Below, piece after piece: positions 4,053 through 45,435 of a stretch of 47,752 bases of DNA (position 1 is the stretch's first letter; each line of letters begins with the position of its first letter). Both the position numbers and the translations under genes were made by a program. The notes below the pieces were generated by a model. The model did not search any database. It was not told where the DNA came from and saw only the letters and a list, made by a program, of their open reading frames with translations. The stretch is from IMG/VR virus record IMGVR_UViG_3300034171_000124, positions 1-47,752 of that record; one strand, given 5' to 3'. The DNA is from a virus (Duplodnaviria > Caudoviricetes).

Positions 4053-4053
4053 A

Positions 4054-14332: not shown

Positions 14333-14674
14333 CTATCCTTTTACATATCTTTTTACTTCGATTTCAAGCTGTTGACTTCTGTTCATTACATTGTCAGGAC
14401 TTACGACTTCAAATACTGCATTATCTTCTAATCTTATGATTCTACAAGTCGAGTCAATCCCAGGCATAAACCACATTCTCAAACTTGCTGGTTCCTTAAC
14501 TTGCTGAGCCAAATTCTTATAAGCTTCAGCACCAAATTTATTTCTCCATTCACAAAATAAATTTTCGTCTATGATATCTACCCATTCTTTGACAGGGTAT
14601 CCATCTTCATCAATCCCTGAACCGGATTCCTTTTGTATTCTGATTGCTGTTGTCATGGCATTAAATTTAAGCAT
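14333..14674 (-). CDS. Head closure / head-tail adaptor
   Basis: Size, synteny and SPP1 gp16-like pattern. Confidence 0.75.
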   Translation of the reverse strand: MLKFNAMTTAIRIQKESGSGIDEDGYPVKEWVDIIDENLFCEWRNKFGAEAYKNLAQQVKEPASLRMWFMPGIDSTCRIIRLEDNAVFEVVSPDNVMNRSQQLEIEVKRYVKG

Positions 14675-21737: not shown

Positions 21738-21849
21738 ATCCTTACTCCTTTTTAATTTTAGACATAGAAAAAGCACCTAAAATCCATTAAGAATTCTTAG
21801 GTGCTTTTTATTTGCAATTACTAATAGTATCATATTACCACACTTAATT

Positions 21850-21887
21850 TATCATGTAAATATCATCTTTTTATCATGTTATTATCA
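21850..21887 (-). promoter_or_regulatory. Late-promoter activator repeats
   Basis: TGATA (plus strand TATCA) at 21850, 21861, 21872 and 21883, spaced exactly 11 bp, at the end of the ArpU-like gene and upstream of the packaging genes. Confidence 0.6.
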
Positions 21888-22789: not shown

Positions 22790-22810
22790 AAAATACCTCC
22801 ATTTTGTACC

Positions 22811-23100
22811 GTGTAGTCTTTGTGTAGTGTTTGTGTAGTGTTTTATAAACCTTACACTAACTTCAAACCATTGGTATTACTAGCTTTTAAAAAATTCCGT
22901 GTAGTCCGTGTAGTAAAAAACACCATTGTGTCTATATTGCATATGCGTATATACATATATTTACATATATTTATACAGTATTAACTTTAGGGGTAAATAG
23001 CTACACTTACTACACCAATGAGACATACAAATGGTTTGATGGTATTATTCGTTACACTAAACCCTACACGTCACTACACTATTTTGCAATTCACTACACG
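22811..23100. repeat. Putative replication origin (oppositely oriented iterons around an AT-rich core)
   Basis: GTGTAG at 22811, 22822, 22833, 22899, 22908; CTACAC at 23001, 23010, 23064, 23074, 23094; ATAT-rich core at about 22940-22980. Confidence 0.7.
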
Positions 23101-23236
23101 AATTATAGATATTTTTAGTATTAATTCAATTTATGCCCATTATTTATTTTATCCCAATATTTGAAGTTTATAGAAGATGTAAAAATTAACCTTTGCAATT
23201 TGACAAAATTTTTAATGTTATAAAGTTTGACAAAAA

Positions 23237-23626
23237 CTAAATTGTCACAAATTCGTATTCTTTTTTGTCTTGATTCCAATTGCATTTTTCACAAATTTTA
23301 TCACCATTTCCCCATAACTCTACTCTTAATCTTCCACACTCAGTACATTCTTCACCTGTGTAGCCTATAAGTGGACCTTTTGTTTTTATACCTTGAATCA
23401 ATTCCTCTGGAACACCATACATATTGCAAATTTGCTTTCTTATTGTTTCATAAAGAGGACTTTTGCCCATACCTATAGCTCCAATGTTTATTTTTTCTAT
23501 ATAACTATCACATTTAGTTATTCCATCAGTACGACAATCTACTTCATTATGGTCATTTATATAGTTACAATCTGAACATGTATTTTTCTTATAACAGGAA
23601 TTACATATACATGATTTAACACACAT
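23237..23626 (-). CDS. Cys-rich hypothetical protein
   Basis: GGAGGTG RBS; several CxxC pairs. Confidence 0.65.
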   Translation of the reverse strand: MCVKSCICNSCYKKNTCSDCNYINDHNEVDCRTDGITKCDSYIEKINIGAIGMGKSPLYETIRKQICNMYGVPEELIQGIKTKGPLIGYTGEECTECGRLRVELWGNGDKICEKCNWNQDKKEYEFVTI

Positions 23627-23646
23627 GCTTACACCTCCATTTTAAT

Positions 23647-23668
23647 TCACAATTTATTTGAAATGCGA
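23647..23668 (-). repeat. Palindromic cassette-boundary site
   Basis: TCGCA-TTTCAAATAAAT-TGTGA between a stop codon and the next RBS. Confidence 0.65.
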
Positions 23669-23669
23669 C

Positions 23670-23930
23670 TTAACGTTCTTCTCCAAGAATAATCATATTA
23701 TTATCGTCATAATCAATTTCAAATTCCTTATCACATTTTTTACACTCCAACCATGAACATTCTGCAAGTCCAATATCACTATTATGCATACGTTTTTTAT
23801 CTGTTAATGTTCCATCCCTTGTAATATCTCGTGCTATCTCATGTGTCCGTTCTTCAATGTATTGTATTGCACCACCACACGTACATGTGGGCTTTTTATA
23901 TTTCATAATATTCTCCTTATAGATAGCCAC
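23670..23930 (-). CDS. Zinc-ribbon hypothetical protein
   Basis: CTCG...CKKC; likely start at MKYKKP after AAGGAG. Confidence 0.65.
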   Translation of the reverse strand: MAIYKENIMKYKKPTCTCGGAIQYIEERTHEIARDITRDGTLTDKKRMHNSDIGLAECSWLECKKCDKEFEIDYDDNNMIILGEER

Positions 23931-24132
23931 AATTGACTAAGCATTACCTAATTTAATATTTTTTTGTTTTAAATTACTATACATTTCATCTGTAACAACA
24001 AAACTACCTGTACAATATAAAGTTGTATTACTACGTAGTTCAATAGCCTTAGTTAAATCCTCAGTATTATTTATTGGATTGCAGATATGACCGTTTTTCA
24101 TATTAAAAACCCCTTCGTTTTATATTTTTAAG

Positions 24133-24171
24133 TCGCTATATAATCATAGTCTACATATTTTTGAAGTGTGA
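24133..24171 (-). repeat. Double cassette-boundary site
   Basis: TCACA-N12-GTAGA-N12-AGCGA; shares TCATAGTCTACATAT (15 nt, plus strand) with 25044-25082. Confidence 0.7.
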
Positions 24172-24172
24172 C

Positions 24173-24592
24173 TTAAACTGATAGCTCTTCTATATTTTGC
24201 ATTGCCCAAAAGTTAGGTTCGTATCCACGTTTTTTCATCCAAGTGTATAGTACTTCATTTAATTTTTCTTCAAGTTCATCACTATCTTCTTTTGTAACAT
24301 CATTCAAATAATCTTCTGCCACTTCTCCAAGTTCATCCCCAGTGTTTTCAGCTATATCCTCTAAAATTGAGTCTACATTTACACCACTCGCAGTTACCTT
24401 ACCAACTTGACCAACCTCAAATAACTCTATAGCTTTTATATCAAACCCATGTTCAGTATTAATTTTATTTTCTGCAAAGGCTTCTGCCCTTCCAATTTCG
24501 ATTGCTTCTTGCCTAGTTTCATAACATTCTCCCGTCCATACTTCATTTTGTCCTATATTAAACATCCATTTACCATTCTCAATATTATTCAA
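24173..24592 (-). CDS. Acidic hypothetical phage protein
   Basis: AGGAGG RBS; D/E-rich, 139 aa. Confidence 0.7.
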   Translation of the reverse strand: MNNIENGKWMFNIGQNEVWTGECYETRQEAIEIGRAEAFAENKINTEHGFDIKAIELFEVGQVGKVTASGVNVDSILEDIAENTGDELGEVAEDYLNDVTKEDSDELEEKLNEVLYTWMKKRGYEPNFWAMQNIEELSV

Positions 24593-24622
24593 TGTAAATT
24601 CCTCCTAATTTTTTATTGTGAA

Positions 24623-24817
24623 TTAATTATTTTCTATATACCACTCTTTTTCCATTAAACTTTTATTGTATGTTGGTCTAACTTTAAGATAATGCATTGC
24701 AAATTTTAATGGCATAAAGTTTGGATATGTCATGTTTTGTCCATATACCTTAATTTTCTTACCTTGTTTCCCTGCTTCTAATGCTTCTTCCCATGTAACT
24801 GCTTTTTCGTTTTGCAT
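24623..24817 (-). CDS. Hypothetical protein
   Basis: AAGGAG RBS; WEEALEAGKQGKKI...EWYI. Confidence 0.65.
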   Translation of the reverse strand: MQNEKAVTWEEALEAGKQGKKIKVYGQNMTYPNFMPLKFAMHYLKVRPTYNKSLMEKEWYIENN

Positions 24818-24847
24818 ATTAAACTCCTTCCTTACATTTTCTCGGAA

Positions 24848-25033
24848 TTAAAGCTTTCTACCACACATAGGACAAAATTTAATATCAAATGTAGCTATTG
24901 CCATACCTCTTTCATAAACTATAATTCCACAATCATCCTTTTTAGTTGTTAACATCAAATTTATTTCTCGTTTTTTATAATGAGTATTCTCAAGTCTATT
25001 TGATTGAACTTCACATATACATTTTTTATTCAT
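24848..25033 (-). CDS. Small Zn-finger protein
   Basis: CICE...IKFCPMCGRKL; GGAGG RBS. Confidence 0.7.
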   Translation of the reverse strand: MNKKCICEVQSNRLENTHYKKREINLMLTTKKDDCGIIVYERGMAIATFDIKFCPMCGRKL

Positions 25034-25043
25034 ATATCCTCCT

Positions 25044-25082
25044 TCGCATTATTTTCATAGTCTACATATATTTGCATTGCGT
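25044..25082 (-). repeat. Double cassette-boundary site
   Basis: ACGCA-N12-GTAGA-N12-TGCGA between a stop codon and the RBS. Confidence 0.7.
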
Positions 25083-25083
25083 A

Positions 25084-25449
25084 TTAATCTTTTACTTTAA
25101 ATAATGGATATTTATAATTATCTATTGTCCAATTTTTAAAACACATTGTGTTTTTTTCTGTATTTATTCCAACACAATTTAAAGCATTTCCTTTATTGCT
25201 ACCTAATGTTAATTCAACTATGCCACCTATTTCATATAACTTTTTAATAGATTCTGCTATTACTATTATTTGTTTTTCTATTTCAGCATGTTTATTTTCA
25301 CATTCTCTAGCCTCATCTATATCGGAAAATTCTCTGTTGCAGACTGAACATCTATAAAATCCTATTGGCATTTTTACACTTCCTTTAATTTGTATTATTT
25401 TTGAATTACGTACTAATCCCAATGTAATTTCTGACCACATTCTGGGCAA
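25084..25449 (-). CDS. Hypothetical protein with C2H2-like motif
   Basis: YRCSVCNREF...CENKH; likely start at MPIGF. Confidence 0.6.
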   Translation of the reverse strand: MPRMWSEITLGLVRNSKIIQIKGSVKMPIGFYRCSVCNREFSDIDEARECENKHAEIEKQIIVIAESIKKLYEIGGIVELTLGSNKGNALNCVGINTEKNTMCFKNWTIDNYKYPLFKVKD

Positions 25450-25766
25450 AATTTTAGCGTTTTCACATTATAATCCTCTGTGGTTATTTCGCAAACAGGG
25501 CAAGTAAATTCATTATCATATTCGGTAAATACTTTTAGTGGTATCTGTTTTTCAAGTGCATCCTTAACTTGTTCAGGGCTTAACCCACTATCTTCGTAAT
25601 CTGATAGCATTTGAAAACCACTTTGTACTGGACAACCGATGCAATTATGGTCTTGAAAATCTTCACAAAAATCATTGCATCCACTTTCACCACAACTTTC
25701 ACACATAGCTTTTAATGTTGGTGAATTTGTTATTTCACTTATTTTCGTCAACCTTTTATACTTCAT
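25413..25766 (-). CDS. Cys-rich Zn-ribbon phage protein
   Basis: YEDSGLSPEQV...ALEKQIP...CPVC...FCPECGQKL. Confidence 0.7.
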   Translation of the reverse strand: MKYKRLTKISEITNSPTLKAMCESCGESGCNDFCEDFQDHNCIGCPVQSGFQMLSDYEDSGLSPEQVKDALEKQIPLKVFTEYDNEFTCPVCEITTEDYNVKTLKFCPECGQKLHWD

Positions 25767-25786
25767 AATATTTAAACCTCCATCTT

Positions 25787-25808
25787 TCGCATTATAATCA
25801 GATGTTGC
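25787..25808 (-). repeat. Palindromic cassette-boundary site
   Basis: GCAAC-ATCTGATTATAA-TGCGA between the primase stop and the next RBS. Confidence 0.55.
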
Positions 25809-25810
25809 AG

Positions 25811-28147
25811 CTATTCCTTAACAAATGGATTATAAATATTATCACACTCGGTCATTTGCGATTGATGATCCTTATCTAGTAACCCAATACCTTTCCAATA
25901 GATGCCAGAATTAGTCCTACCTTTTTCAAATTCCTTTTCTGTCATTTTTCTAGTAAATTTAATAGAAGAAAGTGTATATTCTTTATTCTCTTTGCACCAT
26001 GATTCATAAGTCTTGTATAGATCAGATACATTCACCCTCACTGTTTCACTGCTAGCAACTATGCATTCCTCGGCTATAAACCTTTGGATAGGATCACTGT
26101 CAACTCTATATTCATCCACGGAAGCTTTAACAACATCTGGGATATCTTCACCCTCTTGCTGCCATTTCAAGCAACCTTCTATGGCCCAATTCAATATTCC
26201 ACTCATCTCAGGTATCAATTTGTTTTCAAAGAAGTTCACATCCTTATCACCATCAACGAATTTATATTTAAAAGGAATCTTTCTAACTCTTCTCCAAATA
26301 CCCTCATCATCATTGTTAATTTTGGGCATATGGTTAGTTGACATCCATAATTTAAAAGTAGGCTTAAGGTTAAAACTTGACTCATATAAATTTCTAACCT
26401 TTACGGTCTCGTCTGCTCCTGAAGTAAGAGATTTTAGCAATCCTTCATCAAAGGACTTGGATCCTTTCATCTCATTAACATTTACAAACCTTTTACCTAT
26501 TAATCCTGCAATTTCTTCTCTTGTTCCCTCGTCGCCCATTTTTTCCATTAAACTTTTAGCATCAAGTCCATCAGCATAATCTCCCATAAACCTCATAATA
26601 GTTTTTATAAAAGTACCCTTACCGTTTGCTCCATTACCATGAAGAATATAAAAACACTGTAAATTTGCATCACCGGTCATACTATAGCCTATAGATTTTT
26701 GAATATAATTAATTAACTCCTGGTCCTCCATGAATATTTTATTGATAAACTCGGTCCAGTTTGGACATTGTGCCTTTGGACTATATTCAACATTTACAAC
26801 CTTTGTACAAAAATTTCTTCTATCATGATTTTCTAATAGCCCAGTCCTAAGATTTAAGGTGCCATTTTTTATATTTAACAGGTAATTATCCTTATCTGTT
26901 TCGGTTATTATTAATCGGTTTTGCGTCATGGCCTGATTAACCATAGCTTTTATTTTTCCATCAGATTCACTCCTGAGAACATATTTTTTAATAGATTCTT
27001 TTAATTTCTCTTTTTTTATTTCTTCATCGAACGTTAATCCTTGCAAGGATATAGCCTCACCCTCTACTTGTAATTTCCTAAGTACTTTCCTAGCTAATCC
27101 CTCAATTTTGCCTACAAAATCAAATTCCCAGTGCTTACTGGACCATAATAACCAACTTTTTCGAATTGGATTGTATCTAATATTTTTACCGTATATGGCC
27201 ATTAATCTTTCAGCATTTCCTACATCGCTAAAATTAAGATTTATAAGGCTTTGGTCCTCTGCATCATCATACTCATAGAGGGATGAATTACTAACAATAT
27301 CTATGAGCTCCTCTTTTTCATGCCCTTGATTTATCCAGTCTGAAACATCTTCTTTTTCTTCTAGTTCTGGAATCTCAATTCTTTTTATATATTCAGCAGT
27401 TCCAAATAGTTTTGCAGCAATGTTATCTGCATGCGCTCGTCCTGGATCATCATTGTCATTTAAAATTATGACTTTGGCACCTTTAAAATAGTGGTTATAC
27501 TCTTTTCTCCATTTAGGTTTTTGAGTACTTATTGAAGCACCATCGAAATTACAAGTTGCAACTAAACCCCATTTTTTAAGGTTTTCCGCATCTTTTTCAC
27601 CCTCCACTACATAAACATTCTCACCTTTTTTAATTGCTTCTATGAGCTCTGGAAGGTTGTACACTACGGGTACACATAAAGGGAAATCTTTCATTTTAAC
27701 CTTATCCCTTTTTTTCTTACTCCAATTGTCTCCTCCTGGATAAGTTTCATAATACGTTCCTTCATCAAGGCCCCAAATTGTGCTACCATTTATAATTCTC
27801 TTTTGAGCAAAATGCTTTTTCTTTTGTTCTGTAGCTTCAAATCTTACTTTTTCAAAGAGCATATTACCGGAAGCATCTTTGTATTGGTATGAAATTTCAC
27901 TTTTATTTGTATCTTCTTTATCTTTAAGTGGCTTATCGAACAAGTCTGACATTCCAAGTCCAGCTGCTTCAACAATATCTATGGTTTCACAACCTGCGTG
28001 ACATTTAAAAATTGTGACTCCTTTAGCTCTATCGTATTTAATACTGAGGCTTGCCTCTTTGTCTAGGTGTGAGGGACACATGGCTTTGCATATATCCCCT
28101 TTATCTTCTTTTACTTTGAAATGACTCTTGATAGATTTATAGTCCAT
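25811..28147 (-). CDS. Primase-helicase: Zn finger, TOPRIM and D5/P4-type SF3 helicase
   Basis: CPSH...CHAGC; VVEGEKD and DNDDPG (TOPRIM); SDVGNAERL (D5_N); Walker A GNGANGKGT; IWRR. Confidence 0.92.
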   Translation of the reverse strand: MDYKSIKSHFKVKEDKGDICKAMCPSHLDKEASLSIKYDRAKGVTIFKCHAGCETIDIVEAAGLGMSDLFDKPLKDKEDTNKSEISYQYKDASGNMLFEKVRFEATEQKKKHFAQKRIINGSTIWGLDEGTYYETYPGGDNWSKKKRDKVKMKDFPLCVPVVYNLPELIEAIKKGENVYVVEGEKDAENLKKWGLVATCNFDGASISTQKPKWRKEYNHYFKGAKVIILNDNDDPGRAHADNIAAKLFGTAEYIKRIEIPELEEKEDVSDWINQGHEKEELIDIVSNSSLYEYDDAEDQSLINLNFSDVGNAERLMAIYGKNIRYNPIRKSWLLWSSKHWEFDFVGKIEGLARKVLRKLQVEGEAISLQGLTFDEEIKKEKLKESIKKYVLRSESDGKIKAMVNQAMTQNRLIITETDKDNYLLNIKNGTLNLRTGLLENHDRRNFCTKVVNVEYSPKAQCPNWTEFINKIFMEDQELINYIQKSIGYSMTGDANLQCFYILHGNGANGKGTFIKTIMRFMGDYADGLDAKSLMEKMGDEGTREEIAGLIGKRFVNVNEMKGSKSFDEGLLKSLTSGADETVKVRNLYESSFNLKPTFKLWMSTNHMPKINNDDEGIWRRVRKIPFKYKFVDGDKDVNFFENKLIPEMSGILNWAIEGCLKWQQEGEDIPDVVKASVDEYRVDSDPIQRFIAEECIVASSETVRVNVSDLYKTYESWCKENKEYTLSSIKFTRKMTEKEFEKGRTNSGIYWKGIGLLDKDHQSQMTECDNIYNPFVKE

Positions 28148-28165
28148 GTATCACACCTCAACCTT

Positions 28166-28831
28166 TTAGTTTTTTTGTACATCTTCCATGAATCCTCTGT
28201 GGACTAATATATTTCTAACTCCATAACGTAAGGTATTATATATTTCGCTCCCCATAAATTCCTTTGAAGTAGGTCGTATTATGGTCTTGAATTCTCTTTC
28301 CAGTGCTTTGAATCTTTTATATAATGTGCTTGCATCATATTTGCTTCTGAAATTCCCTTTTCTTATATCTGAATCAAAATCCTTACCTTCCATGAAGATA
28401 TAAAATTCTATTCCATACTTGTTGATTGAAGTTAGTTCTTGCTTCATCCTGTTGTAGTCGGTTTTTAAAACCTTGGCAAGATATTTTTCACCAAACAAAT
28501 CTATTATTTCTTTCTTAATTTCATTTATGTTTGTCATATTATCCTTTAGATTCATGGCTAATTCATCAATGCAGAACTTTCTTTCAATCACTAGTTCATC
28601 TGTAAAGTAAATATCCCTTAACTGTCCTTCAAAGCTTCCAAGTGGCAAATAACAGCCATAGTCTCCATAGTCTAGCTTCTGAACCTTATATTTTTTCTTA
28701 CTTTTATCAAACCATTCAGTGATGTGACTATTCGCCTGCTCTCTTGAGTCCACCAATATAACCATTTTGTTTAATAATTCGTTTATTTCTTTGTCAGTGA
28801 ATTTATATCGCAACATTATCTCTCCTTTCAT
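28166..28831 (-). CDS. ERCC4-domain nuclease
   Basis: VDSREQ...KLDYGDY...VIERK. Confidence 0.88.
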   Translation of the reverse strand: MKGEIMLRYKFTDKEINELLNKMVILVDSREQANSHITEWFDKSKKKYKVQKLDYGDYGCYLPLGSFEGQLRDIYFTDELVIERKFCIDELAMNLKDNMTNINEIKKEIIDLFGEKYLAKVLKTDYNRMKQELTSINKYGIEFYIFMEGKDFDSDIRKGNFRSKYDASTLYKRFKALEREFKTIIRPTSKEFMGSEIYNTLRYGVRNILVHRGFMEDVQKN

Positions 28832-28848
28832 TTGTTAGTATTATTTCA

Positions 28849-29277
28849 TCAAAACGGGATATCGCCATCATCGATTGGAGTTATATCACTATTACTCCCA
28901 AAACTATAATTATCAGTATTAGAGTTATTAGAATCATTTTGTTTTGAGGCCTGTCCATTACCTTTGCTATCAAGGAAGTCCACCTCGTCGGCTATTACTT
29001 CTGTCTTATATACTTTAATGTTCTCTTTATTCATATAATTCGATGTTTGAATACTACCAGTTACACCTACTTGAGAGCCTTTAGTCATATAGTTTGCAGT
29101 AGCCTCGGCTGTCTTACCAAATACCGTAACTGGAAGAAAATCTGCATCCGGTTGTCCCTCTTTTTTAAATCTCCTATTTACGGCAATCGTAAATTTACAA
29201 ACTGCTGTTCCTGTTCCTTGACCAAATATTAATTCAGGATCTTTTGTCATTCGACCTATTAAAGTAACTTTATTCAA
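28849..29277 (-). CDS. ssb: Single-stranded DNA-binding protein
   Basis: MNKVTLIGRMTKDPEL and acidic tail DDGDIPF. Confidence 0.95.
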   Translation of the reverse strand: MNKVTLIGRMTKDPELIFGQGTGTAVCKFTIAVNRRFKKEGQPDADFLPVTVFGKTAEATANYMTKGSQVGVTGSIQTSNYMNKENIKVYKTEVIADEVDFLDSKGNGQASKQNDSNNSNTDNYSFGSNSDITPIDDGDIPF

Positions 29278-29409
29278 ATTAATCGCCGCCTTTTATTTTT
29301 TTGTCTTTGCATTTACTGCAAGTTTCTATCTCATCGTTGCATTTTTCTGGGGAAGGAATTAATTCTTTACATTCCCCACAAACTTTAATTAAAACTCTTT
29401 TATTGCTCA

Positions 29410-29964
29410 TTATTTTTCACCATCCATAGAGTCAATGAATTTTTGAGCCATTGCTGCAACTTGAATAGATTCAGACGCTAAATTTATAGCATAGTTTTTC
29501 AAGTTTTTAATATGTGTCAATGTGTTATCGGTTTTATCTCTTTTTATATAGCCCCAAGTATTGTCTAACTCGAATTTTATATTTAACATTTCTATTTCAG
29601 CCTCTTCAACCTCTTCTTTGAGAACTGCGTAGCCCTCATGAGTAGAATTAAACAAAGGATGCTTTATCATTGATCTTTGTGATTCTTCATCTGCTAATTT
29701 TAAAACTTGTGATTTTAACTGTTCCATTTTTATAACTGGAATTGTCTCGCCGCAATTTTCACAAATCCAAATTCCTTGGCTATCACTGGAATAATATCTT
29801 GTATTACATCTTGGACATATTCTTTTTTCCACTTTAACTCCTCCGTTTCTTGGTTTTTTTACTAGACATATTTGTAAGTGTTTGCTCCCAAGTCCTGAAA
29901 AATTAAATTTTATACATTGTTCAGCAACATTAAACCTGCAATCTTCACATATATGTTTACTCAT
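29410..29964 (-). CDS. Zn-ribbon plus MazG-like helical protein
   Basis: CxxC pairs then STHEGYAVLKEEVEE...ESIQVAAMA. An internal GGAGG + GTG may be the real start. Confidence 0.55.
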   Translation of the reverse strand: MSKHICEDCRFNVAEQCIKFNFSGLGSKHLQICLVKKPRNGGVKVEKRICPRCNTRYYSSDSQGIWICENCGETIPVIKMEQLKSQVLKLADEESQRSMIKHPLFNSTHEGYAVLKEEVEEAEIEMLNIKFELDNTWGYIKRDKTDNTLTHIKNLKNYAINLASESIQVAAMAQKFIDSMDGEK

Positions 29965-29967
29965 AAT

Positions 29968-30936
29968 TTATAACCTCTCTGACATTTCATTTATTAATCT
30001 TGAAATAGCATTTTTACATTTTCCATGCATTTCAGGGTAATCTTTTTTTATTTCATCCATTACCTCAAGCTCATGCCTAAAAACATTCTGAAGTTCTTCA
30101 AAATAAATTTTAAACTTAAGAACTGGCTGAGTAGTATTCTGACCACTTTTATTTCTAAGTTCTTCAAGCTCTATTGCTATTGCATCAGGTATCTTTTCAA
30201 TAATTACTGGTTCTGCTGTTATTACATCAATAGGTTTTTTTGCTTGTTCTTCAAGTTCATCTATCCTAAGAGCTGAACTGTCCAAATCTCCTTGTGCTTC
30301 TTTAAGAGATGCCTGGAGTCTTTCAACCTCTTCATTGTTCCCAGAAGCTTTTGCTTCTCCAATAAACGTTTGAAGCTTTGCAATTTCTTCACTTGATTTT
30401 TCTTTCTCGCTTTTGAGTAAATCCTTAAGTTTCCTTATATCCTCTTTGGCATTCTCTTTTGATTCTCTTAGCAGATTTTCTGAAACAAATTGTAAGCCTT
30501 CCGCTTTTTTCATAGCACTTGAATATATATCTTTTTCATTTATCGCTTTATCTCTATCCTTGATAGCCTGTTGCAGCTCTTTTGTGGTCATTTCGTTTAC
30601 CGAGTTATTTTCTAAAAATTCTTCTCTTTGTGGTTCTTCTATTTTTGACAATGCAAGTAGCTTAACCATTCCCAAATGTCCTATTTGTGCCATCGATGTC
30701 ACATTGTATCCTTCTGATATTTCAATATATCTATAAGCATTTCGTTTTGAATAATCCAGCTCTTTTTCAACATACTCCTCAAAACTACTGCAACTCTTTT
30801 CTGTATATGTTTTGTTATCTCGGATATATTTAAGCTCATTTCCTATGTTCCACAAACCCATACCAACAAAATTCTCATTACTTTTTATTACTACTTCACT
30901 TTCTGATATTGATTTCAAAATTGCCAACTCATTCAT
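29968..30936 (-). CDS. DUF3102-like protein with coiled coil
   Basis: IGNELKYIR...FEEYV...YSKRNAYRYI...MTTKELQQAIK. Confidence 0.75.
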   Translation of the reverse strand: MNELAILKSISESEVVIKSNENFVGMGLWNIGNELKYIRDNKTYTEKSCSSFEEYVEKELDYSKRNAYRYIEISEGYNVTSMAQIGHLGMVKLLALSKIEEPQREEFLENNSVNEMTTKELQQAIKDRDKAINEKDIYSSAMKKAEGLQFVSENLLRESKENAKEDIRKLKDLLKSEKEKSSEEIAKLQTFIGEAKASGNNEEVERLQASLKEAQGDLDSSALRIDELEEQAKKPIDVITAEPVIIEKIPDAIAIELEELRNKSGQNTTQPVLKFKIYFEELQNVFRHELEVMDEIKKDYPEMHGKCKNAISRLINEMSERL

Positions 30937-30955
30937 AATATTGCCTCCTTTTAAT

Positions 30956-32518
30956 TTAAGCCGGAATAGTTGTTCTGTTTTGGATTGTAACTTTTTTCTT
31001 TTCTAATTTTTTTCTTTTAAATATATTGATAAATTGTTTTACATCTTCGCTTGGCGACCTATTATTTTTACCATGTACCTGAATGATCTTATCCTTTTGG
31101 ACCTCTATAGTGTAATAGGACTTGTCCAATTCCGATACTTTTCGAATAAAGAATATATTAGTTTCACCTTTAGCATATCTGTCTGCATAACCGCCTACGC
31201 AATGTGTAAGTGCTGCTCCCTCTTTAATCAATTCATCAGAACTTTCAGCCGGTCTTATTGATAATCCGTTACATTCAAACATATATTTAGCCAAGAGCTT
31301 AACTCTATTTTTTATTAACACATCGAGTTTTTCATCTTTTTGCATTTTAATTTGTTTAATAGTATTTTGATGAGCAGTGAAAAGGTCTCTTGGATAGATA
31401 ATTTGGTCCTTTGTAGTATCCATTTCAAGTTTAATACAATCTGATATATAATCTCTGAAAGTTGAGAGCACACTGCTTTTACCATGATAATGTTTTCCTG
31501 TTTTGTAAATGTTATAGTTATCGAATTGCTTTGAGAAATAATTTAAAAGTTTCTTCATGGAGCTATACTTTAATGCATACTGTAAAGAGTCATAGCAACA
31601 TAAATAGTCTTTTGCTACACTAATAGTCTCTTCTAGTGTCAATTTCCAGTCTCTTTTTTTAGCATCTTGAAAAATCTTTAAAAAGGAGAATGTTACATTT
31701 ATCTTTTGAGCTCTTATTTCTTTTAAATCTTGCTTATTCACTTTTAGTATCTTGAATATAGTTTTTCCTCTCCAGTTTATAGTTCTATATGTGAGGCCTC
31801 CGTCAAGCTTGTTTTGTACTAAGTCCTTGTAGCCTTCTTTTGTCAGATATTCAACAACAGGAAATTTAGTATAGAACTCGAAAAACTTAGTCATATCACC
31901 GCTGTAGTAACAATTCCATTGACTGTATTTGAAAGGAGTATCTTTAATTGCTGATTCAATACTTTCCCTTGAATAACTTACCCTAGCACCTCTTTGCTCG
32001 AATGGTCCTGCTAATGAACAGATACTGCTCGTTCGGTCAAACCTATCGCCATAGTAATTTTTTTTCAACATTGTACTTTGGCCCTTAATTGCATCAAACA
32101 CATACATAGCCATTAAAAAGTAATCCGTTTTCACCCTGGTATAATCATATCTGTAATCCCTTTGGGCTTGGATACCTCTTGCTATAAGCACGTTTGGGTC
32201 TTTAATAGACTTTTCATAGTAGACAAAATATACAGTATCAATCATATATTTCCTGCCCATTCCACCTGATTTCACCATTACCTTACTTTTACAGTTAGGA
32301 CAAGTAGTTTCTTCATTGTGCTTTAAACTATATGTCTTGAATTCCATTCCACAATGAGTGCAGAATCCATACTGTTGCTTTTTATCTTTTCTAGTAAATA
32401 TATACCTGCTAAATTTAAAAGCCTTTTCTATCGCATATTTCTTTACTCCATCACTTATATCGTTTGGAAAATGTTCGGTATATTCTTTATTTCTAGCATC
32501 TACTTCCAATACATTCAT
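30956..32518 (-). CDS. PcfJ-domain protein
   Basis: N-terminal Zn ribbon; C-terminal LIKEGAALTHCVGGY...IFFIRK...YYTIEV...QVHGKNN. Confidence 0.88.
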   Translation of the reverse strand: MNVLEVDARNKEYTEHFPNDISDGVKKYAIEKAFKFSRYIFTRKDKKQQYGFCTHCGMEFKTYSLKHNEETTCPNCKSKVMVKSGGMGRKYMIDTVYFVYYEKSIKDPNVLIARGIQAQRDYRYDYTRVKTDYFLMAMYVFDAIKGQSTMLKKNYYGDRFDRTSSICSLAGPFEQRGARVSYSRESIESAIKDTPFKYSQWNCYYSGDMTKFFEFYTKFPVVEYLTKEGYKDLVQNKLDGGLTYRTINWRGKTIFKILKVNKQDLKEIRAQKINVTFSFLKIFQDAKKRDWKLTLEETISVAKDYLCCYDSLQYALKYSSMKKLLNYFSKQFDNYNIYKTGKHYHGKSSVLSTFRDYISDCIKLEMDTTKDQIIYPRDLFTAHQNTIKQIKMQKDEKLDVLIKNRVKLLAKYMFECNGLSIRPAESSDELIKEGAALTHCVGGYADRYAKGETNIFFIRKVSELDKSYYTIEVQKDKIIQVHGKNNRSPSEDVKQFINIFKRKKLEKKKVTIQNRTTIPA

Positions 32519-33307: not shown

Positions 33308-33467
33308 TAATAATTTCAGTGCGTTCAGGCATAAACCAACCTTTTAAGTTATATATTGTGGACCTACAAGCTGCGTTTATTTGTGTCTCTGTTAACTCTT
33401 CTAATTCTTTAAAAGTGTTCACTCCCAACCCCTCCAATTTATTCGTAAATTCCCAAACCTCGCTCAT
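33246..33467 (-). CDS. Hypothetical protein
   Basis: 73-aa ORF overlapping the nuclease stop. Confidence 0.55.
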   Translation of the reverse strand: MSEVWEFTNKLEGLGVNTFKELEELTETQINAACRSTIYNLKGWFMPERTEIISDTDFEEFLLHNIEFEKNHE

Positions 33468-34254
33468 ATTCCAGTATGCTTATAGGCTTTTCAATCTTCT
33501 TGATACTCCTACAATAATCACATTTGCCACAAAATATCGGTTCCAATTCTCCATCTCTTACCGCTACAATGTGCTCTAGTCTACTTTCAATTTCTGATAA
33601 TTTATCATCTATAAATGATTTTCCCATGTAGATAACTTCGTGATCAGGAACCTCTTGCTTATCCACAACTATTAAATAAGGTTCTAAATAATCCACAAGT
33701 CCTGTGTTTTGTTTTAAAATCTGTGCATAAATTGCTATTTGTGTCTGATAATCATACTTGTTTATAAAGGTTTCTTTGCTTCTAATATCATTATTCCAGT
33801 ACGTTTCGCTCAATCCCTTAGTTGTTTTTATATCAGCAAAGTATCCCTTTTCTAAGTTCAAAATATCTACTTGAATCTTAAAATCTACTCCGGCAATTTT
33901 ACCAACGAATATTTGTTCCTTTTTACCCTCTCGTATTTGTTCCACCAGAGGATCATTTCTCAGTACCTCAATCATTTTATCCCCAAGTGCATATTTTGCT
34001 AACATGGAACCATCCTTTTTAAATAGTTCTGGATGGTCTGCTGTGAACTCTCTTAATTCTTCTGAACTCCAAGCATGTACATAACTTCCAAGTAGGAAAG
34101 CTGGGTTATCTTTTTCTATCCATATACCATTACGCTTTGCAACCTCTTTGGCTTCACATCCTCCATGGAATATGTCCCAAGCCTTAAAAGATGATGAACC
34201 CATATACAAGAGTTCGGCTTCTGTGCTAAAGTAATTTTCTCTAGTTAATTCCAT
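33439..34254 (-). CDS. PD-(D/E)XK exonuclease (DUF3799/RecE-like)
   Basis: LTRENYFS, GSYVH, VDIL...ADIKT, QIAIY and CGKCDYCR. Confidence 0.85.
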   Translation of the reverse strand: MELTRENYFSTEAELLYMGSSSFKAWDIFHGGCEAKEVAKRNGIWIEKDNPAFLLGSYVHAWSSEELREFTADHPELFKKDGSMLAKYALGDKMIEVLRNDPLVEQIREGKKEQIFVGKIAGVDFKIQVDILNLEKGYFADIKTTKGLSETYWNNDIRSKETFINKYDYQTQIAIYAQILKQNTGLVDYLEPYLIVVDKQEVPDHEVIYMGKSFIDDKLSEIESRLEHIVAVRDGELEPIFCGKCDYCRSIKKIEKPISILEYERGLGIYE

Positions 34255-34579
34255 CAGTTTTCACCTCTTCTTGTGGCATTTCATAAATAAATATTGAAGA
34301 TTCATATTCATTAAGAGCTATAGTTCTTGTAAGAGAAGCTAGTTTTAATCTTTCAATCACTGTGATTCTCTTTTTCATATTGTCTAACACTTTTACAGCA
34401 CTTTCGTTGTCTTTATATACTCCAAGTTGCACTCCGCTATGCTCTTCATCACTCGTGATTGCATAAATGGAGGTACGGTCTAGTTGAATTCTATTAGCAT
34501 CAATCAGTTCAGTTTTGTCTTGACTCTCAATCCACATTACTATCACCATCCTCTGGAAACTCTTCATAATTTGTTTCAA
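34241..34579 (-). CDS. Hypothetical protein
   Basis: MWIESQDK...LGVYK...YEMPQE phage-type pattern; start likely at MWIES. Confidence 0.65.
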   Translation of the reverse strand: MKQIMKSFQRMVIVMWIESQDKTELIDANRIQLDRTSIYAITSDEEHSGVQLGVYKDNESAVKVLDNMKKRITVIERLKLASLTRTIALNEYESSIFIYEMPQEEVKTDGIN

Positions 34580-35345
34580 TTATATTTTCATCTGTTTCGA
34601 CTTTATCAGTTTTAAAGGTATCAGGTACTTCTTCATTTACCTTTTTATCTTTTTTAAAATCCATATCTGAACTTTCTTCAAATATCTTAGCTTGTTCTAT
34701 AGAGGAAAAATCCTTTTCTATCTTTTTAGTCAATCTTCTCAATACTGTTTTTTTATACATTTCCCCTGGAGTTTGCACCCAAGCCTTTGAATACTCTCCA
34801 GTTTTATAAGATTTTTGTGAGAAATTAATTTTAATGTTTTCAATTTCTTCGGTACTCATTGTTTCATATTCCATTCCATTATCTTGATACAAAACTACTG
34901 CAAAGGCTCCTATGATTTTATTATTGTTAAAACTAAGCGGCTTAAAGTTTATACTTTGTTGCCCTCTTAATATCTCTTCTTCAAACAAATCGCCCTCTTG
35001 TACTATCTTTGCGTATATGTCTTTAATGGCTCGTATACTATGTTTTTTAGCTAATTTAGTTTCTCCCTTATAATCTGTACGGAATTGCAACTCTCCTTTA
35101 ACTGGTATCGCATAGCATTCCTTTTGGAAGAAATCTAGCCCTAGGAATGCACCTTTGAGTAAAGTTCTAGCTATGCTGTTAGGCTGACAAGTTTCTATGT
35201 TGTAGGTGTCTTGCATTACTGTCATACAATTTTGTAGAAACCTAGTTTGATTAAAGTCATTCGGCATAGCATCTATTTTACTTACCAATAATCTATTTAA
35301 TTCATTTGCAGTGCCTTGCAGCACTAAGCTTTTTTTATCTGCCAT
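34527..35345 (-). CDS. recT: RecT-family single-strand annealing protein
   Basis: KGAFLGLDF, DYKGE and EMYKKTVLRRLTK; paired with an exonuclease. Confidence 0.9.
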   Translation of the reverse strand: MADKKSLVLQGTANELNRLLVSKIDAMPNDFNQTRFLQNCMTVMQDTYNIETCQPNSIARTLLKGAFLGLDFFQKECYAIPVKGELQFRTDYKGETKLAKKHSIRAIKDIYAKIVQEGDLFEEEILRGQQSINFKPLSFNNNKIIGAFAVVLYQDNGMEYETMSTEEIENIKINFSQKSYKTGEYSKAWVQTPGEMYKKTVLRRLTKKIEKDFSSIEQAKIFEESSDMDFKKDKKVNEEVPDTFKTDKVETDENIIETNYEEFPEDGDSNVD

Positions 35346-35537: not shown

Positions 35538-37221
35538 CTATTTCTAATTCTTTTTCCTTAACAATAGTTACAAATGCTTGAATATCGTTAACTTCGCAAA
35601 TGTCTAAAACTTTCTTTTGCTCTGATTCATTTAATCTTTCAAATCCATCCAAGCACATTATTTTAAGTTCGCCCATCCTCTGAAGAGATATATTGAATGC
35701 TACTTCTAGCTTTTCTCCATCACTCAAGCCATCCAATAGAGTTCCATGAATTCTAATCATTCCTTTTTCATCTACACCAATACCATTGATAGGTAGTTTA
35801 TGAGTTTTTAAAAGGTCCGCGGGCTTCTGTCTAGCGATATTAATCTGTTCAGTGAATAATGCACTGGAAACTTTTTTCTCTGCTAATTGTCCGTTAATGA
35901 TGCTCTGTAGCCTGTCCCATTCCCTAAGATAACCCTTCATGGTTTCTACTTCGCTGGCTTCAATTTGTAATGGCTTAATATCAATTTCTTCATGCTCCAT
36001 TAGATATTTTTTAGACTTTTCTACTTTTATAGTAGCTTCATCAATTTTGTTTTTAGATTCTTTTTCAATAGATGAAAACTCAATTTCTTTTTTCTCATTA
36101 AGTCCTGATAGCTGTGATTCTTTAACAGATATTCTGCTATATTCAACTTGTATTTTTTCTTTATTTTCATATTTTATAGTCTCTGATATTTTTTCAAAGT
36201 TCTCATTTTCATTTTTAAAATCCTTTTTAACCATAACAATTCTTTCTTTATAGCCATCCTTTAGTTGCTGCAATTTCACTTGTAATTCATTTTCTATCTC
36301 TGCTAAATCCTTTTGATGTTTAAATTCATTTCTGTCTAAATTGTCTTTTAGGTCCTCTGTACTTTTATTAGACTCTTCTGTAGCTTTTTCAATTTTACTT
36401 TTACTTAAAGTGATGATATCTTTAATATCCGATTCCATTCCCCTATATTTCAAGGTAATGGAAGATTTTTGATTGTCCGATTCTTGCCCAATAACTTCAA
36501 TTTTATTATCAAAGCCCTTTTGCAATTCCTTAGCCTTTTCAATCCATCCATTAACTTCTTTTGCTTTGTCCACTTTAGAATAATACTCCTGGAGGTTTTT
36601 ATTTTCCCATTCGCTACCCACATAATTAGCCGGCAACTCTTTCTCAATAGCATTACACTGAATTTGTAGGACTTGTATCTGCCTGTTAATCTCTGTACGT
36701 TCTGCGAAAGATTTAGTTTCTATATCTTTAAGAATCTGTAATATGTGCTTATCATAATTGATGCCAAGGACTTCACTTCCAAACCATGCTGTTATATCTT
36801 CCATGGTCCAGTTAACTTGGATCATGTTTAAGATAATTTCCGTCTGCTGCTTAATGTCCATAGTTACGAAATCTAAAGGTCTGAATATATCACCACTGAT
36901 TAACTTCCTTAACTCTTTTTCTGTAGAATTAATTGCCTTACCCTCTTGCCTAAGTTTCATGTAATCAGCCTTACCGCTTCTAATTTTTCTATCTATTTCT
37001 AAGCCGTTGTCACATTCAATGTACAATGTAGCCTCTTCCTTGCCGTGTCTTATAACTTCTGTTCTTCTCCTTGTATTACTGAATGCTGTTTCTATAGCTT
37101 CAAGTACACTTGTTTTTCCACTACCTTTTACACCTTCTAAAATATTTATTCCGGGATTTGGATTCCAATTAAGTTCTTCTAAACCCACATACCCACCAAT
37201 TTTTAATGCTTTAATTTTCAT
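35524..37221 (-). CDS. SMC/Rad50-like ABC ATPase
   Basis: Walker A GVKGSGKTS, long coiled coil, signature LSDGE, Walker B MCLDGFE. Confidence 0.88.
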   Translation of the reverse strand: MKIKALKIGGYVGLEELNWNPNPGINILEGVKGSGKTSVLEAIETAFSNTRRRTEVIRHGKEEATLYIECDNGLEIDRKIRSGKADYMKLRQEGKAINSTEKELRKLISGDIFRPLDFVTMDIKQQTEIILNMIQVNWTMEDITAWFGSEVLGINYDKHILQILKDIETKSFAERTEINRQIQVLQIQCNAIEKELPANYVGSEWENKNLQEYYSKVDKAKEVNGWIEKAKELQKGFDNKIEVIGQESDNQKSSITLKYRGMESDIKDIITLSKSKIEKATEESNKSTEDLKDNLDRNEFKHQKDLAEIENELQVKLQQLKDGYKERIVMVKKDFKNENENFEKISETIKYENKEKIQVEYSRISVKESQLSGLNEKKEIEFSSIEKESKNKIDEATIKVEKSKKYLMEHEEIDIKPLQIEASEVETMKGYLREWDRLQSIINGQLAEKKVSSALFTEQINIARQKPADLLKTHKLPINGIGVDEKGMIRIHGTLLDGLSDGEKLEVAFNISLQRMGELKIMCLDGFERLNESEQKKVLDICEVNDIQAFVTIVKEKELEIVGGK

Positions 37222-37376
37222 TGCATTACCTCCCTATATCTCAAACCCATTCTTCTTACAATTAACCTGTCAAGTTCCTCTGATACCTTTATAGTTTTTT
37301 CATCCAATAATCCATTACTTTTAATAGCTTGATAGAGAACTTCTTTTTTTATTTCAATTTCGTTATCTAAGCTCAT
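37218..37376 (-). CDS. Spo0E-family aspartyl-phosphate phosphatase-like protein (52 aa)
   Basis: RBS GGAGGA; MSLDNEIEIKKEVLYQAIKSNGLLDEKTIKVSEELDRLIVRRMGLRYREVMQ, where SEELD matches the SQELD family motif. ATGA overlap with the next gene; below the ORF-track cutoff. Confidence 0.75.
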   Translation of the reverse strand: MSLDNEIEIKKEVLYQAIKSNGLLDEKTIKVSEELDRLIVRRMGLRYREVMQ

Positions 37377-39707: not shown

Positions 39708-40751
39708 ATGGCAAATATTAAAAAAATGGAAAACGATACGTTTAAAGCCACTATTTATTTAGGGCGAGATGCAAAAGGTAAACAAATACGTAAAACACTT
39801 TATGCCACAAGTGAAAAAGAATGTAAAAATAAAGCTCGAGTAATAGAACAAGAATACCAAGACGGACTATATATTGACACTAAAAAAATGAGATTTACAA
39901 AGTGGGCAGAGGAATGGCTTGAACTTAGAAAAGATAGAATATCGCCATCAACATTACAAAGTTATGATATATATATCAATATACATTTTAAACCTCACTT
40001 TGGTAATTTAAAAATATCTCAAATAAATGAGCTTATGATTAAACGATATATCGCTGAAAAATTAAAAACATTATCATCTACAACAGTCAGAAAGCATATC
40101 TACATTCTAAGTGCAATACTTGAAGATGTGCTGAAACATAAAAACCCTTGTAAATATATCGAGATTCCAGAAGTTGCCCATTACGAATATCATATTGTGA
40201 CGGATGATGAATATAAAATCATCAGAGAGTTTTTCAGAGGAAAAGCTTACGAACCTATAATACTGTTAGGCGCATTATGTGGAATGCGTAGAGGCGAGAT
40301 ATTTGCTCTTAAGTGGGATGATATTGATGAGAAAGCCCAAACAATAAGAGTGGATCAAGCGATGTGTATCTCTAAAGAAGGCTATATAGAAAAGAAAACT
40401 AAAAGTAATAATGGATTCAGGACCATAATAGCCCCTGACGAAATATTTAACTTGCTTGAAAGAAAGAGAAAACAACAAAAAGTTATAAAAGAACGAATTT
40501 TCCCCAGCAGGCCTGATTCGTTTTCGAGTTGGTTTTCTGTATGCATGACTAAGTTAAATTTAGATATTAGATTCCACGATCTTCGGCATTATCATGCAAC
40601 TTGGCTATATAAAAATGGAATCCCAGATTTATTTGCTGCTCAAAGACTTGGAGATGATCTCAATACAATTAAGCGAATTTATCAACATATTGGAGAGGAC
40701 ACAACTAAGAAATACAATGATGAAATAATCAAGAGAATTAATACAATATAG
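39708..40751 (+). CDS. int: Phage tyrosine integrase
   Basis: N-terminal arm-binding region; GMRRGE, KTKS, HDLRH and RIY; adjacent to attP. Confidence 0.95.
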   Translation: MANIKKMENDTFKATIYLGRDAKGKQIRKTLYATSEKECKNKARVIEQEYQDGLYIDTKKMRFTKWAEEWLELRKDRISPSTLQSYDIYINIHFKPHFGNLKISQINELMIKRYIAEKLKTLSSTTVRKHIYILSAILEDVLKHKNPCKYIEIPEVAHYEYHIVTDDEYKIIREFFRGKAYEPIILLGALCGMRRGEIFALKWDDIDEKAQTIRVDQAMCISKEGYIEKKTKSNNGFRTIIAPDEIFNLLERKRKQQKVIKERIFPSRPDSFSSWFSVCMTKLNLDIRFHDLRHYHATWLYKNGIPDLFAAQRLGDDLNTIKRIYQHIGEDTTKKYNDEIIKRINTI

Positions 40752-41862: not shown

Positions 41863-41908
41863 AAAATAACAAGAGCTCTGGATATAATTCCAAAGCTCTT
41901 GTTATTTT
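41863..41908. terminator. Bidirectional terminator
   Basis: AAAATAACAAGAGCT...AGCTCTTGTTATTTT. Confidence 0.7.
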
Positions 41909-42404
41909 AGTTAACAGGTATTTCAAATGTAAGTATGCCACTCTTTTTATAAGCTTCACTGGAAAAAGTTATTTTTACTTTATCACTTTTATTAGCTAGC
42001 CCATAATAACCCTGAACGGTACAATTAGTACCGACTGTTATCTCCTGTGGGTGTTGTTTCGGGAACATATCTGAGCTTTCTGCCACTGCACCGGTTGAAT
42101 CTGATACCTGCAGGTCTGCAGCATGTATAAGAAGTTTACTATCATCGCCTTTGGCAATATTTTTATAAGTGTAATCAACTTCAATTATTTCTTTTGATAC
42201 TGAAAAATCACTTTTATATTCAAAGTCATTTGCTTCCTTAACACTATTGATGATAATGGAATACATCTTGTCTCCGTCATCATTAATTACAAACACTTCT
42301 TCACCTGGTCCATGTACTTTAGGTACTTTACTTTGAGTGCTTCCGCATCCTACAAATCCAAGAGATAGGATCACAATACCTAATAATATAATAATTTTTT
42401 TCAA
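41907..42404 (-). CDS. Lipoprotein, DUF4352-like Ig fold (possible superinfection exclusion)
   Basis: Signal peptide with lipobox FVGC; VDYTYKN...LQVSDSTG...EITVG pattern. Confidence 0.75.
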   Translation of the reverse strand: MKKIIILLGIVILSLGFVGCGSTQSKVPKVHGPGEEVFVINDDGDKMYSIIINSVKEANDFEYKSDFSVSKEIIEVDYTYKNIAKGDDSKLLIHAADLQVSDSTGAVAESSDMFPKQHPQEITVGTNCTVQGYYGLANKSDKVKITFSSEAYKKSGILTFEIPVN

Positions 42405-42479
42405 TTTTATTCCCCCTATTAAGTTCTATATTCCTCATTGTAATACATTTTGTAACATTTGTAAAAATATTATATCATT

Positions 42480-44921: not shown

Positions 44922-45070
44922 CGTTTTGCCCCAAATAATATCAAGAATACCCCTGCCATAGCTACTATTATAAATACTGGTTCAAGTTGTGTTGCAGTAT
45001 AACCTATTCCGTTCGATACAAATTGACCAAGTCCTTCCAGTAACCAATTTATACTATTTTTAATCATCAT
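44858..45070 (-). CDS. Small membrane protein (70 aa)
   Basis: GGAGGG RBS; two hydrophobic segments; overlaps the ATPase start. Confidence 0.7.
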   Translation of the reverse strand: MMIKNSINWLLEGLGQFVSNGIGYTATQLEPVFIIVAMAGVFLILFGAKRWGTKLTSFSIIIYTLTRIMS

Positions 45071-45078
45071 TATCCCTC

Positions 45079-45426
45079 CTAGAATTTAATACCTTTTAGT
45101 ATTGCAAATATTTGCGGTATGAATTGTATCCCTACAAATCCACCTATAGCACTTTTTATAGTTTTAAATCCCTTTTGCTCATCTCCACCCATTACTGACA
45201 TGAATCCTTTTATCATGAACCCATAGCTTATTGGCTCTGCTAAGTCCTTAATAACATCTATTAATGGGCTCAAGCTCTGAGCTATTGTTTTTGCATATAC
45301 TGTCTGGCCATTGAAACAATTTATTACGGTTACAACTACTATCCCAGTTTGTACTAGGCACTTATCAACGTTTATATCATACTCTTTAACTTTTCCATCT
45401 TTTACTCTAAATCCAACTATTCTCAT
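45079..45426 (-). CDS. Membrane protein, VirB2/TrbC pilin-like topology (115 aa)
   Basis: VYA processing-like site, then two hydrophobic helices separated by GGDEQKGFKTIK. Confidence 0.6.
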   Translation of the reverse strand: MRIVGFRVKDGKVKEYDINVDKCLVQTGIVVVTVINCFNGQTVYAKTIAQSLSPLIDVIKDLAEPISYGFMIKGFMSVMGGDEQKGFKTIKSAIGGFVGIQFIPQIFAILKGIKF

Positions 45427-45435
45427 GTCTACCCC

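Follow-up and report, generated by a model that had tools for sequence, protein, structure and literature searches.

It has long been asked how phage genomes come to exchange genes precisely at the borders of genes and domains, and the usual answers are recombination through short homology or random joining followed by selection. Here we describe a candidate site-specific route, found in IMG/VR virus record IMGVR_UViG_3300034171_000124 (Duplodnaviria; Caudoviricetes), whose 47,752 nucleotides were analysed in full and are referred to below as the window. The window is the complete circular genome of a temperate siphophage (47.7 kb, with a 127-bp terminal repeat), and it carries copies of a 30-bp site shaped like dif, both between small accessory genes and around the tip of its fibre. 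We read the feature as dif-site cassette exchange in phages, covering accessory genes as well as receptor-binding tips, with a tyrosine recombinase (YR) of the Xer type as the catalyst that we infer. It is larger than was recognised in the original prediction, which was made from the letters of the window and described an integron-like array of small variable genes. If the reading is correct, it would provide a site-specific engine for phage mosaicism that is neither integron nor shufflon, and one that is directly testable with a 30-bp site and two candidate enzymes.

Comparison with described systems

The nearest parallel is found in Acinetobacter plasmids, where dif-shaped pdif sites with a 6-bp centre delimit accessory-gene modules that are swapped, gained or lost at centre-matched sites, and for which a cointegrate-type two-step exchange has been proposed (PMC13141974). 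The phage sites likewise place a 6-bp centre between two inverted arms, and their modules are replaced or lost with breakpoints in the site. However, pdif arms are distinct XerC and XerD arms (the latter TTATGTTAAAT-like), their orientation alternates, and they use host XerCD, whereas the phage arms are symmetric, adjacent phage sites are mostly direct (137 pairs within 4 kb in the same orientation and 12 in opposite orientation), and the phage sites have a YR family of their own. The phage site also differs in including a stop codon in its arm, in occurring in frame in fibre genes, and in having a phage as its carrier. Its arms are unlike those in the available pdif table (PMC13141974) and in the Firmicutes dif rows of an earlier survey (PMC3025954).

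Two systems that vary protein domains are also comparable. In Streptococcus pneumoniae, the tyrosine recombinase TvrR of the tvr locus shuffles protein-domain segments via direct repeats of two types, which lie in frame at the midpoint of a domain and past the gene (18 and 70 bp, with an 11-bp core; PMC6265443). The phage sites similarly form two classes of direct site, one in frame and one post-gene, but tvr shuffles within one chromosomal locus via a circle carrying tvrR, whereas the phage exchange appears to take place between genomes and includes whole genes. In the Rin shufflon of Bifidobacterium prophages, an arm-less tyrosine recombinase encoded beside a receptor-binding gene uses asymmetric 11-bp sites, located in the gene and just 3' of it, to invert silent C-termini that are kept as a library (PMC6109161; for Rci/sfx, see PMC8138268). 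Shared with Rin and Rci are the arm-less YR with intact catalytic residues and the combination of in-gene and post-gene sites; unlike them, the window carries a single tip between two direct sites, with no inverted sites and no tip library, and the same site also bounds accessory genes.

Integrons are defined by IntI, attI and attC. Points of resemblance are arrays of small genes that share one orientation, seem to lack promoters of their own and end at a tyrosine recombinase, as well as the CAT, GNAT, NUDIX and DUF1697 genes that neighbour chromosomal copies of the phage-type site. Membership did not survive comparison: with the IntI profile TIGR02249, full-length YR relatives score 65–73 bits against a cut-off of 265, and in contrast to attC the site is a short double-strand dif-type site that forms no stable single-strand hairpin (predicted folding of the nine window sites as single-stranded DNA, 0 to -2.3 kcal/mol). 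Because there is neither an IntI match at cut-off nor an attC-type hairpin, the system is not an integron. In single-recombinase Xer systems, the site often lies just upstream of the recombinase gene. The phage system shares this placement with XerS/difSL, XerH/difH and XerA (named in PMC8138268 and PMC3025954), together with the single recombinase and the symmetric arms; it differs in having many cassette-bounding sites per phage genome rather than one dimer-resolution site. According to PMC8138268, few phages have simple YRs, and these have mostly been taken for integrases. A search of the open-access literature, with subscription papers outside its scope, found no paper on this site or system.

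Architecture of the site

The full unit consists of a 12-bp arm, a 6-bp centre and a second 12-bp arm, with the consensus TAGTTCGCAATW-N6-WATTGCGAACTA. The arms are symmetric (TAGTTCGCAAT / ATTGCGAACTA), and the stop codon of the upstream gene forms the outer left end of the site. Matrices were built in an 11-8-11 (lox-like) register and later re-read as 12-6-12, because positions 12 and 19 are complementary and the host site discussed below has a TGTATA-type centre. The dif-like layout of two inverted arms around a 6-bp centre thus agrees with what had been proposed. The four strings first quoted for the array occur verbatim on the minus strand, 1–2 nt past a stop codon and ahead of a ribosome-binding site (RBS), and the copies at 25044 and 24133 do share an exact 15-mer, ATATGTAGACTATGA. 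The 5-12-5 motif drawn from these strings marks real sites, but its bare core, WCGCA-N12-TGCGW, had to be rejected as a signal (18 matches with up to 2 mismatches against 22.6 expected); only the full 30-bp matrix is enriched.

A matrix built from seven window copies found, as its best match outside the training set, the copy in frame in the fibre gene. The 30-bp matrix was refined on 80 YR loci of other phages and then run on the window and on 30 shuffles. Ten window matches reached at least 12 bits, against a mean of 1.7 and a maximum of 5 in the shuffles; the ten are the array copies (one scored on both strands), the in-frame fibre copy and the post-fibre copy. Since one of the 30 shuffles attained 22.1 bits, the position of a site weighs more than its score. 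At least 12.9 bits were scored at 6 of the 9 array stops, compared with 1 of 54 other stops, that of the fibre gene, the next best score being 4.9. A mere coincidence of AT-rich motifs with the codons of a repeated fibre peptide, which the unenriched core and the 22.1-bit shuffle might suggest, can hardly be credited, as it is contradicted by these stop-position scores, by the rare-codon excess at fibre junctions, by the switching of flanks in the site and by the clustering of sites upstream of YR genes, all described below.

No promoters are visible among the array genes, in agreement with the original prediction: promoter-like matches across 22800–26000 number 23 against 20.7 expected, which is chance level in a scan of the letters alone. 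Palindromic sites that all point the same way and immediately precede RBSs, in what may be an early operon, could conceivably be operators or 'stoperators' for a phage or host regulator. This is very improbable, given that the cI/cro immunity control region (38.3–41.7 kb) contains no match of at least 12 bits to the refined matrix and that in-frame copies at fibre domain junctions, where flanks are exchanged, make up half of the family.

The fibre tip and its two sites

The best match in the genome (23.0 bits) is the in-frame site in a BppU-type fibre gene (TGAGTCGGAATT GGCAAA TATGACGAAACA; 5879–5908, minus strand), which reads ESELANMTK and confirms the in-frame copy of the original prediction. 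A post-fibre site (AGTGTCATCATA GGAAAA TAAGACGTAATT; 4026–4055, minus strand; 15.2 bits) has a centre one base off that of the in-frame site, and between the two lies an exchangeable tip unit (4044–5896, minus strand) with SGNH/GDSL-like and CE2_N-like domains, both under the Pfam cut-off. Contigs of at least two other phages agree with the window on the holin side to exactly 4043, where the centre meets the left arm, and have different left arms beyond it, so that the relatives of the window part at exactly 4043/4044. In another contig, a 2520-letter segment replaces 1986 letters of the tip region. Record 4 of X1 and record 15 of X2 apparently come from one phage and enter the counts as one; at the X1 joint, the 5878 side spans just 28 letters and is therefore evidence of a similar in-frame site, not of a common N-terminus. 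By protein comparison only, the tip (residues 246–855) is 89% identical in P0002, where the N-terminus is different and shorter and the join coincides with the site peptide.

Codon usage indicates that the in-frame copies are selected as DNA. Among 12 fibre junctions chosen by peptide alone, codon 7 is NNG in 9, against 0.6 expected, and TCG opens 9 of 20 matches in a broader peptide set, whereas it makes up 2.3% of Ser codons in the background.

Exchange at the sites in other phages

A 24-letter pattern matched at least 142 IMG/VR loci, with about 180 stretches estimated. Among the matches listed there are 130 distinct contexts, in which TTAG and CTWA ends are conserved beyond the search pattern. 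The matched stretch is immediately preceded by a stop codon in 99 of them, and with 1 nt in between in another 25. A stricter 27-letter pattern had zero matches in IMG/VR, and an arms-only pattern, which we regard only as a lead, occurs in 10 of 30 genomes in the genus of G005, mostly in single copies.

Flanks were analysed for their combinations in 58 in-frame and 72 other contexts. At least two partners were seen for 13 of 21 left and 13 of 30 right in-frame flank clusters, and all four left/right combinations are present for 5 pairs of left flanks in the in-frame set and for 2 in the other contexts; these counts show a pattern, not a rate, because related records are not independent events. 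In 171 contexts, pairs with the same left flank remain alike along the left arm, and their identity has dropped to background by site positions 24 and 28; pairs with the same right flank show the reverse, with near-background identity in the left arm and similarity that begins at the centre. Judged by these alignments, the accessory genes and fibre tips of many clostridial-type phages are exchanged at the sites, with flanks that switch partner within the site. A set of 508 sites (295 site pairs) yielded two filled/empty cases, and for 5 of 157 units the neighbours differ on the left as well as on the right. The flank switching, the filled/empty pairs and the divergence at 4043/4044 together bear out the expectation that gene gain and loss and fibre-tip exchange would break at the sites.

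The centres fall into classes. In the gut-phage family, one centre position is G in 81 of 84 in-frame copies and A in 86 of 87 intergenic ones. An in-frame site and the next intergenic site have unlike centres in 65 of 66 pairs; the difference is a single base in 50 of these, as in the window (GGCAAA in frame, GGAAAA post-fibre); identical centres occur in 13 of 53 intergenic site pairs. Because the sites around a tip differ in centre, a two-crossover tip swap would be favoured over tip deletion.

The system appears patchy, because eight cultured phages (phiCD38-2, phiC2, phi8074-B1, phiIBB_Pl23, Emery, phi3626, vB_CpeS-1181 and GBSV1) show no clear excess of sites over a reversed-pattern control with a loose pattern, and this may be why the site went unnoticed. 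The phiC2 genome (W02) has a single good match (14614–14637, minus strand), which is distant from both the fibre and the lysis genes. In phages of 130–140 kb (G001 27564–31601; L079, L084), tandem fibre-like genes are each flanked by site pairs, and a different, distant YR is located far from the sites. Phage-type sites adjoin CAT-family (PF00302) genes at L191:840–1527, L193:1501–2188 and L239:8357–9106, representing two chromosomes with differing neighbours beyond the site and one prophage array. Other chromosomal copies lie near NUDIX, GNAT and DUF1697 genes (L189, L194, L396), and G098 has three chromosomal phage-type sites (L397, L411, L414), each followed by a common short sequence, like the end of a small repeated element.

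Sites and genes of the array

In the window, the accessory array sits between the primase gene (25811–28147) and the block of late regulator and terminase genes, where a series of small genes, most of them unassigned to any family, occupies the minus strand. It comprises eight small co-oriented genes (23237–25766, minus strand) for products of 54–139 residues, several of them Cys-rich and mostly with no named function; BLAST against Clostridiaceae genomes (380 scored, 21 more unscored) yielded few usable homologues. The left end of the array is site S1 (AGCTGCAACATC TGATTA TAATGCGAAAGA; 25783–25812; 13.2 bits), in 12-6-12 form at the primase stop; this and the following sites are all on the minus strand. 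Primase relatives of the window phage, which are Clostridium phages and prophages, split directly past the primase stop and vary in array content. Two of them (L001, L004) have site-like sequence at the S1 position and other genes downstream, and related contigs cease matching at 25815, next to S1.

Further along, S1.5 (TAGTACGTAATT CAAAAA TAATACAAATTA; 25386–25415) reaches 17.9 and 19.4 bits under two matrices derived from other phages. Sites S2a (25057–25086; 13.8 bits) and S2b (25040–25069; 14.9 bits) form, by alignment, a stacked double site (25040–25086) with a 17-bp offset, and S3a (24146–24175; 15.2 bits) is stacked likewise with a weak S3b (24129–24158; below 9 bits) at 24129–24175. 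The 39-bp copies noted in the original prediction are therefore present, but as stacked sites offset by 17 bp. A left-half site (24596–24625; 12.9 bits) is fused to the leader of a PHROG-1672 gene, and one contig in run X1 has right-arm-like sequence ahead of the same 30-nt leader, with a loose end at 24613. The PHROG-1672 cassette gene lies upstream of S3a, and 4 of 7 distinct contexts of its homologs end in the left arm with differing right sides. By eye, an uncertain and possibly degenerate remnant (24821–24850; below 9 bits) follows the stop of a 61-residue gene. The best array copy is S4 (TAAGTCGCATTT CAAATA AATTGTGAATTA; 23643–23672), with 20.2 and 22.7 bits and symmetry at 9 of 12 positions. 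Units of two or three genes had been described; most units in fact hold one gene, because the sites at 25386–25415 and 24596–24625 (the left half), like the post-fibre site at 4026–4055, had been missed. Contigs of 4 runs, which drop rare forms, show no circle, back-joint or deletion joint at the array sites.

The phage recombinase and the proposed mechanism

The Xer-like YR is encoded after the lysis genes and across the circular join, with its 5' part at 1–662 and its 3' part at 47292–47625, both on the minus strand. The arm-less product of 331 residues has no internal stop and matches PF02899, PF13495 and PF00589; alignment shows the R, K, HxxR, H and Y motifs intact, the H-x-x-R, H and Y catalytic motifs lying in the 3' part. 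Its best NCBIfam match is the XerA-like NF040815, the cut-off of which is exceeded by one relative. An ordinary integrase (39708–40751, plus strand) is encoded separately, beside a cI-like repressor, and the Xer-like gene is for this reason a spare one.

Sites gather ahead of this gene family. In 80 YR loci, scored with the matrix from other phages, 40 of 52 sites fall in the 3 kb ahead of the gene, and 45 of 52 share the orientation of the YR. With cross-validation in 67 dereplicated loci, same-strand sites number 70.7 upstream and 5.9 downstream per about 270–296 kb, and a site occurs within 450 bp in 23.7 of 64 upstream regions compared with 0.7 of 66 downstream ones. Because sites lie upstream and hardly any downstream, the YR ends arrays and is not itself a cassette; it directly follows the post-fibre site in phiCp-D and TPELB_ph1 and elsewhere follows an accessory array. 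We consider it probable, though well short of certain, that accessory genes and fibre tips of clostridial-type phages are exchanged at these 30-bp dif-shaped sites by the phage-borne arm-less YR, often acting in trans. The exchange unit would consist of centre plus right arm, RBS, gene, and stop/left arm, with crossover at the borders of the 6-bp centre. Recombination between same-centre sites would add or remove array genes, whereas the unlike centres around a fibre tip would favour a two-crossover exchange of tips between phages, as in recombinase-mediated cassette exchange, over tip deletion. The YR would be supplied in trans by a co-resident phage, a likely arrangement because only few site-bearing records encode it.

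Several observations weigh against this reading. A YR orthologue was found in only 4 of 49 site-bearing records checked, which were drawn from the 142 loci (3 of 30 near-complete ones; 11 further records among the 49 have a distant YR only). None of the 5 close relatives that were searched has one, it is present in 7 of 101 Clostridiaceae genomes, and of 80 loci just 1 has it within 7 kb of the holin, though 33 of the 80 have sites. In the window itself, the YR gene lacks a site immediately ahead of it and is separated from the array by about 23 kb; the copies in the array are degenerate, their arms being symmetric at 3–9 of 12 positions, and may partly be inactive scars; and no joint was found at any array site in the contigs of the 4 runs mentioned above, which drop rare forms. 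The matrices are not fully independent of the window, because the 24-letter seed pattern was designed from its sites, and related contexts are not independent events. Finally, a one-base spacer mismatch did not block pdif recombination (PMC13141974), so a bias toward tip exchange is not assured. The part given to the orphan Xer-like gene in the original prediction accordingly stands in that sites cluster upstream of its family, but is weakened in that most site-bearing phages lack the YR and host Xer has a same-shaped site.

A linker or 'boundary sequence' model is known for lambdoid phages. Applied here, conserved gene-boundary linkers would be recombined through short homology by phage RecT/exonuclease or by RecA, with no site-specific enzyme. 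The window phage does encode a RecT-like annealase and a PDDEXK exonuclease (33439–35345, minus strand), most site-bearing phages have no YR, and any common 30-mer would yield switches inside it. We nevertheless rate the model as quite improbable: it does not account for dyad symmetry around a fixed, asymmetric 6-bp centre, for the class-specific centres (in-frame G, intergenic A) or for a geometry shared with the host xer palindrome, and the window copies are mostly too divergent for it. Unrelated tips, moreover, each retain a divergent yet consensus left arm that ends at the same base.

A broader form of YR-mediated exchange is a tentative proposal, plausible but not one that we would call probable. 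One dif-derived site family, together with a public-good recombinase encoded by about 1 in 10 phages, would form a community-wide plug-in system in which heterospecific centres swap tips while accessory genes, including CAT-family genes, come and go between unrelated phages and into chromosomes. In either form, exchange at these sites would give clostridial phages new genes and host range, and a site at the receptor-binding tip junction would account for the rapid shifts of host range in clostridial phages of the gut and the environment.

Outside phages, the YR is closest to hsdS-associated clostridial YRs (35–38% identity), a comparison made by BLAST only and separate from the recombinase tree. 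These relatives lie among type I restriction-modification hsdS segments in 10 of 101 Clostridiaceae genomes (L452–L461), and the loci are probably hsdS shufflons.

Host Xer and a candidate clostridial dif

The main rival reading assigns recombination of the sites to the single Xer of the host chromosome; they would then be genuine pdif/IMEX-like sites, and the phage YR next to them would be redundant or unconnected. A single-copy chromosomal Xer-like gene is present in 41 of 41 Clostridiaceae genomes, and a 12-6-12 palindrome with the same TCGC-N14-GCGA spacing occurs at 35 of 37 chromosomal xer loci. In one host group, the palindrome TTCGCAAAA-TAAAAA-TTTTGCGAA is very near the gut-phage site, and the complete phages G003 and G004 have near-perfect sites and no PF00589 match. 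Against these similarities, the inner arm triads are invariantly AAA/TTT in the host (35 of 35) versus a phage consensus of ATW/WAT; phage YR and host Xer form separate tree groups (21 and 12 rows) with about 30–35% identity; and the sites gather upstream of the phage YR without the downstream site expected of a passenger cassette. The xer-upstream palindrome of the gut-phage hosts was not identified in the loci examined, 25 further xer loci having given one clear palindrome of this type. Because of the upstream gathering of sites, the differing triads and the separate grouping of the enzymes, the phage YR acting in trans is preferred, and catalysis by host Xer appears unlikely.

The host palindrome is of interest in itself. 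Near-perfect in form (e.g. AACTTCGCTAAA TGTATA TTTAGCGAAGTT), it lies just upstream of clostridial xer (L415–L444, L157, L404–L410, L463–L496) and is probably the chromosomal dif in a xerS/difSL-like layout. In 14 of 18 genomes in which xer lies more than 1 Mb along a long contig, it falls at 45–53% of the rounded genome size, with positions counted from the record start and not anchored to the origin. The phage-type site, by comparison, occurs as a single chromosomal copy in 18 of 401 Clostridia genomes at 2 mismatches and in none more closely. A literature search found no paper on a palindrome upstream of clostridial xer. The survey of Kono et al. (PMC3025954) reports no dif for C. perfringens 13 or C. 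beijerinckii, and its four C. botulinum predictions lie 137–176 degrees from the skew shift. As a by-product, the present work thus offers a candidate chromosomal dif for clostridia, where that survey failed or placed sites far from the terminus.

Other features of the phage genome

A plasmid-like block at 41907–47200 of the window encodes a ParM-like ATPase, two small PHROG-4223 proteins, an ATPase of 813 residues, small membrane proteins and a lipoprotein. It coexists with the ordinary integrase, phiCp-D has a comparable block with ParM and a TraD-like protein, and the block possibly reflects a phage-plasmid lifestyle. Directly past the stop of the late regulator, at 21845–21884, repeated TGATAA-type words are kept in relatives and represent a possible regulator binding site. 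The early region includes genes for a Spo0E-like phosphatase (37218–37376) and a PcfJ-like protein (30956–32518).

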